Below are positions 353 through 1,297 of a DNA stretch of 33,750 bases, piece by piece (position 1 is the stretch's first letter; each line of letters starts with the position of its first letter). Made by a program: the position numbers and the translations under genes. The stretch lies in the IMG/VR virus record IMGVR_UViG_2778261166_000006, positions 1 through 33,750 of that record; one strand, given 5' to 3'. Under the pieces are notes generated by a model. The model made no database searches and was not told the DNA's origin. It worked only from the letters and a program-made list of their open reading frames with translations. The DNA comes from a virus (Duplodnaviria; Heunggongvirae; Uroviricota; Caudoviricetes).

Positions 353-1297
353 TCACAACCAGCCGACGCTCTCTCGCCATTTATAATTAGTAACTTTATC
401 ATTTTCGCTTATTTTTTTAGATATAGAGCGCGGCTCTCTTCCTAGATACTCAGATATTTCTGTCGGGGACAAATCAAAATCGACAAGCATGACTCTAAGT
501 TTTTCCATTTCCTTTAAAGTCCAAGGCTTGCCATAATTTTCATAAAGAGATACCTTATGCTCCCTGATAGTTCGCTTTCTCTGAGTTTCACTTTCCCTCT
601 GAAAAATCTCGCTTTTAAATTGTGAACGGAACTCTTTACAGAAGTTGTTATCAGTTTTTTTGTTATATAGATTGCTAAAAATAAGCTGGGATGCCGGGTC
701 TAAATCAGGTGTGTTAATAATGAAAGCTTTGACCTTTTCCATATAGGGATATTCAATTTTACCCAATATGCTTAATTGCTTTATATTAAAAAAACCTCTC
801 AAATCAAAAGATTTAATGAGCTTTGATTGGATTACACTTTCAATCCTGCTTGCATTTGAATAACAGTACTTTGCCATTGGAAGGGCCCATACTACCAGTT
901 GAGGAATATATTTTTCTAATGCAATGCTCTGCCAATCAGTATCAAAGGTTTGGCTTTTTGCTAGCATGTTTTTCGGCAAATCAGAATACATTGTGGTAGA
1001 TGCCCATATCTTATAATCATTCGCCAAGGCTTGATAGTATTTTGTGTGGTTATGAATTTTATAAGCTGACATGAAGCGATAAACGTCTTCGTCGTGACCA
1101 GCGTCGTAAATTGTTCGATTTCCTCTAAGATAACCGTCGTAATGTTCGGTTATCCTTCTACCTACATTACAACTTACCCCAACGTAAACCACACGACTGA
1201 AAAGTCCTTTATGGACAATAAGATAAACTCCGCTACAGCCAGATTTCCTGGCCTCTGATAGAGAACCTAAAAATCTCCATTCCATAATTAAATCCAT
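353..1297 (-). CDS. GIY-YIG-like nuclease domain protein with a C-terminal HTH-like region (AT-rich cargo gene)
   Basis: N-terminus GVYLIVHKGLFSRVVYVGVSCNVGRRITEH fits the GIY-(10-11 aa)-YIG pattern with the following Arg. C-terminus LSPTEISEYLGREPRSISKKI looks like a helix-turn-helix. Visibly AT-rich relative to the flanking phage DNA. No clear Shine-Dalgarno before either candidate ATG. Confidence 0.5.
   Translation of the reverse strand: MDLIMEWRFLGSLSEARKSGCSGVYLIVHKGLFSRVVYVGVSCNVGRRITEHYDGYLRGNRTIYDAGHDEDVYRFMSAYKIHNHTKYYQALANDYKIWASTTMYSDLPKNMLAKSQTFDTDWQSIALEKYIPQLVVWALPMAKYCYSNASRIESVIQSKLIKSFDLRGFFNIKQLSILGKIEYPYMEKVKAFIINTPDLDPASQLIFSNLYNKKTDNNFCKEFRSQFKSEIFQRESETQRKRTIREHKVSLYENYGKPWTLKEMEKLRVMLVDFDLSPTEISEYLGREPRSISKKISENDKVTNYKWRESVGWL

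Follow-up and report, generated by a model that had tools for sequence, protein, structure and literature searches.

What kind of protein is encoded by a gene lodged between the integrase gene and the attachment site of a prophage, how did it come to be there, and what might it do for the lysogen? The window analyzed here is the whole 33,750-nucleotide (nt) stretch of the IMG/VR virus record IMGVR_UViG_2778261166_000006 (positions 1 to 33,750), and the gene is an open reading frame (ORF) of 314 amino acids (aa) on its minus strand. Comparison with related loci indicates that the gene is the cargo of a small mobile cassette bounded by two types of palindromic site, here termed A and B, within an e14-like prophage, and that its product joins a predicted GIY-YIG nuclease to a Myb-like DNA-binding domain. 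Its most likely role would be phage or plasmid exclusion, or another defence function carried as cargo for the lysogen; judged from sequence, structural model and genomic associations together, we give this role about an even chance. The features of the gene and its product are as follows.

353-1297, minus strand: ORF of 314 aa (reading frame, homologs, ratio of nonsynonymous to synonymous substitution rates (dN/dS))
773-1285, minus strand: GIY-YIG nuclease domain, about residues 5-175, with an insertion of ~90 aa
1223-1225, minus strand: Y25 codon
1184-1186, minus strand: Y38 codon
1154-1156, minus strand: R48 codon
1142-1144, minus strand: H52 codon
839-841, minus strand: E153 codon
785-787, minus strand: N171 codon
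383-532, minus strand: predicted SANT/Myb-like three-helix DNA-binding domain, about residues 256-305

A check of reading frames recovered the ORF from its ATG start, with a GC content of 0.33-0.39 across 353-1297 compared with 0.44-0.51 in the flanks, in agreement with the AT-rich 314-aa gene of the preliminary description, which had been made from the letters of the window. The ATGs at the 1297 end and at 1285 are both invariant among nine aligned loci, and the equivalent of the second, Met5, is the start in many homologs, giving 310 aa. The 72 homologs of ~310 aa come from Enterobacterales, Vibrio, Aeromonas, Pseudoalteromonas and Undibacterium, and many already bear the NCBI name 'GIY-YIG nuclease family protein'; an HMMER scan of 1.84 billion representatives returned only 140 relatives. 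Values of dN/dS against nine orthologs were mostly 0.09-0.16, which indicates that the gene is under purifying selection.

Conservation and predicted structure converge on a two-module protein. Across 25 aligned sequences of 38-85% identity, residues Y25, Y38-V39-G40, R48, H52, E153 and N171 are invariant, and the triplets G23-V24-Y25 and Y38-V39-G40, lying on model strands 23-30 and 34-42, are invariant or nearly so. The AlphaFold (AF2) model built from the alignment is confident, with a predicted local distance difference test score (pLDDT) of 92.4 and a predicted template modelling score (pTM) of 0.83; its N-terminus matches GIY-YIG folds and its C-terminus SANT/Myb folds. The insertion separates the halves of the catalytic motif, with E153 in the model helix 146-164. 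At the other end, a long linker helix (residues 228-251) precedes a three-helix bundle whose conserved aromatic residues fit a SANT/Myb-like helix-turn-helix, and whose fold resembles transcription-factor domains such as GcrA. An hhalign comparison placed Y25, Y38, R48 and H52 opposite Y6, Y17, R27 and H31 of I-TevI, in a match that is short and of low probability. The Pfam model PF01541 was matched by 25/25 aligned members (best E 7e-6), and the distant relatives P0074, P0090, P0076 and P0081 exceed its cut-off at 23-32 bits. For the window protein itself, matches in Pfam, NCBIfam and PHROGs are sub-threshold and always fall on residues 22-62, the best in NCBIfam being a group I intron endonuclease model. 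The N-terminal GIY-YIG motif, the C-terminal helix-turn-helix and the likeness to free-standing homing-endonuclease-like proteins, all suggested earlier, are thus borne out by the alignment and the model. R48 and H52 supply the arginine and histidine expected in the first helix of the fold, and E153 and N171 are the candidates for its metal-binding glutamate and the asparagine that follows.

The protein is, by these comparisons, an uncharacterised member of a known family, a GIY-YIG nuclease in predicted activity with a Myb-like DNA-binding domain. The family was covered by no defence-system model, solved structure or paper that we found; PDB sequence searches gave spurious antibody matches or nothing, and a fold search of BFVD gave weak matches only. 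A recurrent partner gene near family members was not found either, and therefore the protein probably acts alone. Recurring 301-aa neighbours were considered as partners and rejected, the proteins being unrelated. Dozens of relatives of 200-230 aa (P0090-P0135) cover profile positions 1-207 only, that is, the nuclease and middle parts without the Myb-like domain, and a 515-aa relative carries DUF5677 in its place.

The immediate surroundings place the gene at one end of a prophage, as set by the following features.

1550-2680, minus strand: intE, with Pfam lambda-integrase arm-binding and catalytic domains and matching annotation
2658-2903, minus strand: xisE, with a Pfam Exc match and matching annotation
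10-219, plus strand: remnant of the insertion sequence IS1 adjoining the cassette junction, annotated as a pseudogene in an identical genome and 78% identical to IS1A

The gene lies on the downstream side of intE, 253 nt from its 3' end (1550). Escherichia coli TUM1880 is 100% identical to the window, and its gene order runs icd, an ISVsa5 copy, two unknown genes, the IS1 remnant, the nuclease gene, intE and xisE, followed by lambdoid early genes and then Q, lysis and tail genes. The left attachment site, attL, is icd, and the right one, attR, is formed by a truncated copy of icd next to mcrA and pinE, ~41 kb from icd and beyond the window; the gene is therefore inside the prophage. Its host element is an e14-like prophage of ~41 kb at icd that contains the whole window, and the gene occupies the attL-to-int cargo slot. 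The integrase-proximal cargo locus and the adjoining IS1 remnant of the preliminary description are accordingly retained. The same slot carries ymfD, ymfE and lit in K-12 and an AAA ATPase and HNH endonuclease pair in strain EC06; of 5,426 complete E. coli genomes, only two have the present gene there. At the attR end (NZ_CP135706.1, 3041967-3043859), mcrA and pinE adjoin the truncated icd as in K-12 e14; mcrA is a 5-methylcytosine-specific endonuclease gene.

The gene had also been described as bracketed by three copies of a hairpin motif. The motif GTCCGCT-N10-AGCGGAC does occur at 251-274, 293-316 and 1466-1489, with 0.06 matches expected by chance and none of 100 shuffles reaching four. 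The copies belong to two 24-nt site types with common arms, GTCCGCT/AGCGGAC, and different cores, TGGCAC in A and GAGCGA in B. The resulting cassette is composed of the following parts.

251-1489, minus strand: whole cassette with its sites, as given by homology limits and by site halves in seven contexts
1466-1489, minus strand: upstream site B (GTCCGCT TT GAGCGA GG AACGGAC), core 1475-1480
1298-1465, minus strand: conserved 5' control region, from an alignment of nine loci
293-316, minus strand: downstream site A (GTCCGCT CT TGGCAC GA AGCGGAC), core 302-307
275-292, minus strand: 18-nt spacer, semi-conserved
251-274, minus strand: second site B, core 260-265

In gene orientation, the order is the intE stop codon, 60 nt, B, the 168-nt control region, the ORF with 36 nt behind its stop codon, then A, the 18-nt spacer, B and the IS1 remnant. 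Site A, the spacer and the second B form a 66-nt A-spacer-B junction of the type usual inside arrays. The outer half of the upstream B derives from the e14 backbone and the inner half from the cassette, and a B-type site is likewise present beside intE, at the equivalent place, in K-12 e14. On these comparisons, the travelling unit is the stretch from core to core, about 302-1480, a 1.2-kb B-cargo-A cassette. Its control region contains an inverted repeat, CTGTGTGAATCAnCAG at 1435-1450, that is invariant in the nine loci, and TATAAT boxes at 1404-1409 and 1382-1387; it may serve as a promoter with a possible operator, and a simple promoter scan picked neither of the two boxes.

The three copies stand, as palindromic sites of two types; the hairpin fold does not follow from them. 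Covariation in the A-site stem was not significant (36 A sites; 95/500 shuffles reach the observed score), and self- and cross-pairing of the four arms tied at 11.67 of 14 each over 33 junctions, so that neither a selected RNA or single-stranded DNA fold nor a preferred pairing was retained, and for this reason we speak of palindromic sites rather than of hairpins. The 66-nt junction can fold into one long imperfect hairpin. Intrinsic terminators were rejected, with no T-run past either site on either strand, as was identity with attC sites, the RYYYAAC/GTTRRRY boxes being absent from the window sites; Rfam gave no family match in window 1-1700. A site match with two mismatches at 29505-29528, in a tail-region ORF and lacking an A or B core, is probably due to chance.

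The limits of the cassette can be read from its copies in other elements. Loci in Salmonella, Enterobacter, Pantoea, Citrobacter, Silvania and Serratia carry it at 91-98% nucleotide identity, with 97-98% among the E. coli, Salmonella diarizonae and Enterobacter bugandensis copies. Homology across genera starts within the upstream B (1489-1480) and ends at 293 (A) or 251 (the next B), and the match to other e14 backbones ends at 1458-1465. Of the 5,426 E. coli genomes, 289 carry the cassette, most of them with an identity of >=98.5%; four plasmids carry it too. Its contexts, at least seven in number, include CP4-type islands, where it lies beside an Mrr-type restriction endonuclease gene, an island with a HEPN gene and the gene of a 1,356-aa NACHT protein, an IncFIA plasmid, and a viral contig (L043) with an integrase that shares only 47% identity with IntE; all six of six flank clusters are different. 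Compared over seven contexts, the halves of the sites that face the cassette (GAGCGA-GG-AACGGAC and GTCCGCT-CT-TGGCAC) never change but the halves that face outward do, and therefore the switch between backbone and cassette falls within the 6-nt cores. A link to IntE was rejected, since no IntE homolog lies within 8 kb at the genome loci L003-L025 and the L043 integrase is so distant. On plasmid NZ_AP022179.1 (locus L161), ~40-70 nt past the GIY-YIG stop codon at locus position 7945, site A breaks off after GTCCGCTT; the annotation places an IS110-family transposase gene from 8018 onward, apparently an insertion inside the palindromic site. Copies of IS1, IS3, IS5 and ISVsa5 adjoin junctions in other loci.

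Among the closest known counterparts of such a cassette is the phage P2 gene fun(Z), an exclusion gene blocking T5. It is flanked by a B-type site at 17432-17455 and an A-type site at 15335-15358 of P2, and the cores GAGCGA and TGGCAC, their order and their orientation are all equal to those of the window. The inverted-repeat flanks of this cassette, and a site-specific exchange proposed by Nilsson et al. (2004), are mentioned in a passage of PMC8987985. Both cassettes carry a single AT-rich gene in a prophage cargo slot, share the flanking sites and have their breakpoints between elements at those sites; they differ in cargo, the P2 protein being unrelated to the GIY-YIG/Myb protein, and in slot, which in P2 lies between the tail genes G and FI and in the window between att and int of an e14-like lambdoid prophage. 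By this sequence correspondence, the window element is a fun-type A/B cassette in an e14-like prophage, a known kind of cassette. Literature searches for the A and B site sequences found nothing, and the sites are not mentioned in recent hotspot papers; a 2026 survey of P2 and P4 hotspots calls the route of defence loci between unrelated elements unknown (PMC13586616).

The sites are far more widespread than the gene. The 66-nt A-spacer-B junction was matched in 1,246 E. coli genomes, in every case between genes, and also in 544 plasmids and in two P2-like phages; site A, taken alone, was seen in more than 119 viral contigs, and the fetched loci contain 88 'B-cargo-A' units. Unrelated cargo cassettes with A/B ends are carried by lambdoid and P2-like prophages, islands and plasmids: one lambdoid early-region slot holds six different cassettes in 23 instances, and a P2-like slot, with the tail-fibre-assembly gene on one side and the sheath gene on the other, has seven in ten instances. 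A 1008-nt cassette recurs in three unrelated backbones, its homology limits coinciding to the base with the outer ends of B and A. The cargo of the A/B cassettes includes a TIR-TM protein, a trypsin-like protease and a HAD plus NUDIX pair, among others, and gene orientation within the sites is not fixed. Position 4 of B varies with the backbone (1.00 bit), as does position 17 of A (1.00 bit), and positions 16-24 of B and 8-9 of A vary with the cassette. A near-empty lambdoid early-region slot in E. coli A20 (L164, 601-872) consists of B, 224 nt without an ORF and A, and its backbone flanks abut exactly; the 224 nt may be a remnant or a small RNA. An empty P2-like slot (L163) has neither site and is missing an adaptor of ~60 nt on each side. 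In the P2-like slot of phage 899 (L037, ~3562-3570 and 6776-6784), the backbone bases bordering the array form an inverted repeat, AATCTGACA ... TGTCAGATT, which is also present in P2 (L165) beside the B-type site described above. An array in an E. coli SE11 prophage (L027, 10080-12202) contains an unrelated 'LEM-3-like GIY-YIG' gene and, behind it, one for an HNH endonuclease; other GIY-YIG genes near junctions are likewise not homologous to the window gene, and nucleases of several families recur as A/B-array cargo.

Inverted arms of 7-9 nt around an asymmetric 6-nt core resemble the layout of recombinase core sites, and two different cores would permit replacement of a cassette by two crossovers. 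We tentatively propose, as a possibility that falls well short of probable, that A and B are heterospecific core sites of a site-specific recombinase, forming a natural exchange system for defence and other cargo across Enterobacterales, in lambdoid and P2-like prophages, islands and plasmids, with the GIY-YIG/Myb protein as a new single-protein anti-phage nuclease family riding on it. If this is true, A/B exchange would be the missing mechanism for the traffic of defence genes between unrelated mobile elements; the question is directly testable, because breakpoints are confined to 6-nt cores and the sites are widespread.

The gene family also travels by another route. A Vibrio parahaemolyticus homolog with 61% identity (contig DBHWEU010000028.1; L031, 7861-8976) lies among arrays of small co-oriented genes, with 122-nt attC-type repeats just before its start codon and 5 nt after its stop, and is therefore an integron cassette. 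Sequence comparison thus indicates that one gene family rides two different cassette systems, A/B and attC. Integron cassettes resemble A/B cassettes in their promoter-proximal single genes, structured repeats in between and unrelated cargo in arrays; however, each A/B cassette has two distinct sites, B to its left and A to its right, where an integron cassette has a single attC, the window cassette has no integron integrase next to it, and, as noted, its sites do not have the attC boxes.

What the cassette would do for the lysogen can be outlined as follows. A single-gene cassette with its own 5' control region, having entered the e14-like slot through exchange at the A/B cores, would encode a two-module enzyme; the C-terminal domain would bind a specific DNA sequence, and the long helical linker would position the N-terminal GIY-YIG domain to nick or cut DNA close by. 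By damaging the DNA of competing phages or of other invaders, the enzyme would give the lysogen superinfection exclusion or defence. This role is suggested by the integron-cassette setting of the Vibrio homolog and by the company the gene keeps: Mrr-type endonuclease, NACHT and HEPN genes near the cassette elsewhere, the TIR-TM protein, the trypsin-like protease and P2 fun(Z) in sister A/B cassettes, and lit in K-12 and the AAA ATPase with HNH in EC06 in the icd-intE slot. Lit of e14 is comparable in slot, prophage family and the B-type site beside intE; it is a protease acting on EF-Tu, whereas the window protein is a predicted DNA nuclease. The family may provide a phage-exclusion activity not seen before, or a nuclease that looks programmable, with a GIY-YIG cutter tethered to a DNA-binding domain; it is a well-conserved single-protein nuclease family that occurs in Vibrio integrons and in about 5% of the E. 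coli genomes.

Several observations weigh against an exclusion nuclease. Taken alone, the window protein scores 15.8 bits against PF01541, below the cut-off of 22.6, so that the profile comparison anticipated in the preliminary description succeeds for family members and relatives but not for this protein by itself, and E153 and N171 are placed from invariance and fold alone. PADLOC-DB 2.0 gave no significant full-length system model; its sole match for the window protein is to PDC-S14 over residues 12-53 (E 0.0075), nothing is matched beyond a GIY-YIG motif of ~30 residues, and the relatives' matches, to PDC-S14 and UzuA, are at motif level as well. No methyltransferase or immunity partner gene is adjacent, which makes discrimination between self and non-self hard to explain. 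A set of 50,697 sequenced phage records contained no copy of the gene. Cargo unrelated to defence, such as HAD plus NUDIX, occurs in some A/B cassettes, with lpxP nearby in the same category, and because of these the slot by itself is no proof of defence.

A selfish homing-type endonuclease, which would cut cassette-free slots at A/B or adjacent sequence and be copied in by repair from a cassette-bearing copy, with any host benefit incidental, is the main rival but rather unlikely, with several points in its favour. The architecture of GIY-YIG, linker and helix-turn-helix in a single protein without a partner is that of I-TevI and the Seg enzymes, the best, sub-threshold NCBIfam match points the same way, and mobility is high, with seven contexts, 6/6 different flank clusters and cross-genus identity of 97-98%. 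I-TevI is known to repress its own gene through an operator, and the conserved inverted repeat in the 5' region could be one of this kind. The comparison has limits: sequence similarity to I-TevI/Seg is confined to ~40 residues, the window protein has the ~90-aa insertion within its nuclease domain and a SANT/Myb-like module instead of the I-TevI set of zinc finger, minor-groove helix and helix-turn-helix, and its gene lies neither in an intron nor between conserved phage genes but in A/B or attC cassettes. Other facts speak against homing. Unrelated, nuclease-free cassettes share the A/B ends and change backbones too, only 289 E. coli genomes have the gene although 1,246 have the junction, and the Vibrio gene sits in attC-bounded integron cassettes instead; strong purifying selection with mostly intact copies is not the usual decay pattern of homing genes.

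An improbable alternative is a DNA-binding regulator or other non-destructive protein, which would keep the GIY-YIG fold without turning it against foreign DNA and act for example in repair or in prophage gene control. The GcrA-like fold of the SANT/Myb-like domain and the gene's own conserved upstream palindrome would suit such a role; however, the catalytic-type residues are all invariant over 38-85% identity, which argues for an active enzyme, and the 200-230-aa relatives retain the nuclease part without the Myb domain. It is very improbable that the protein is the machinery that moves the cassettes, with its Myb-like domain recognising the palindromic sites and nuclease breaks starting the exchange. 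GIY-YIG enzymes can act on structured DNA, and here a predicted DNA-binding nuclease is physically flanked by the sites, yet most A/B cassettes and arrays are in genomes and elements without this gene, and in P2 the sites flank fun although the phage carries no gene of this kind. The reading as an ordinary host gene lying outside the prophage, or as an ORF arisen by chance, found no support and is refuted by the position between icd (attL) and intE with attR ~41 kb away, the 72 homologs, a dN/dS of about 0.1 and presence at this place in only 2 of 5,426 genomes.

The predicted exclusion nuclease also differs from the GIY-YIG restriction enzymes R.Eco29kI, Cfr42I and Hpy188I, in that its gene has no adjacent methyltransferase, no homology is seen at the sequence level, and it has a separate Myb-like recognition domain.

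Further candidate cargo was observed in the same prophage. Just beyond the window, upstream of its position 1, two genes at 9609-10514 (301 aa, with N-terminal membrane helices) and 10847-11974 (375 aa) of locus L001 are further cargo genes of the same slot, with A/B-type sites at L001 9398, 10576 and 10618 setting them apart; Pfam gave no match for either one, and the remaining fetched loci contain no homolog of them. Within the window, a 406-aa hypothetical gene and a 'nucleoid-associated protein' gene (10469-12839, minus strand) lie between the Q antiterminator and holin genes, which is a classic moron position, and no A/B sites were detected there. A hypothetical gene beside xisE (2934-3253, minus strand) is frameshifted and annotated as a pseudogene in the identical genome. 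From 14445 onward on the plus strand, an S1-family peptidase gene is annotated right after the lysis genes and may be cargo.
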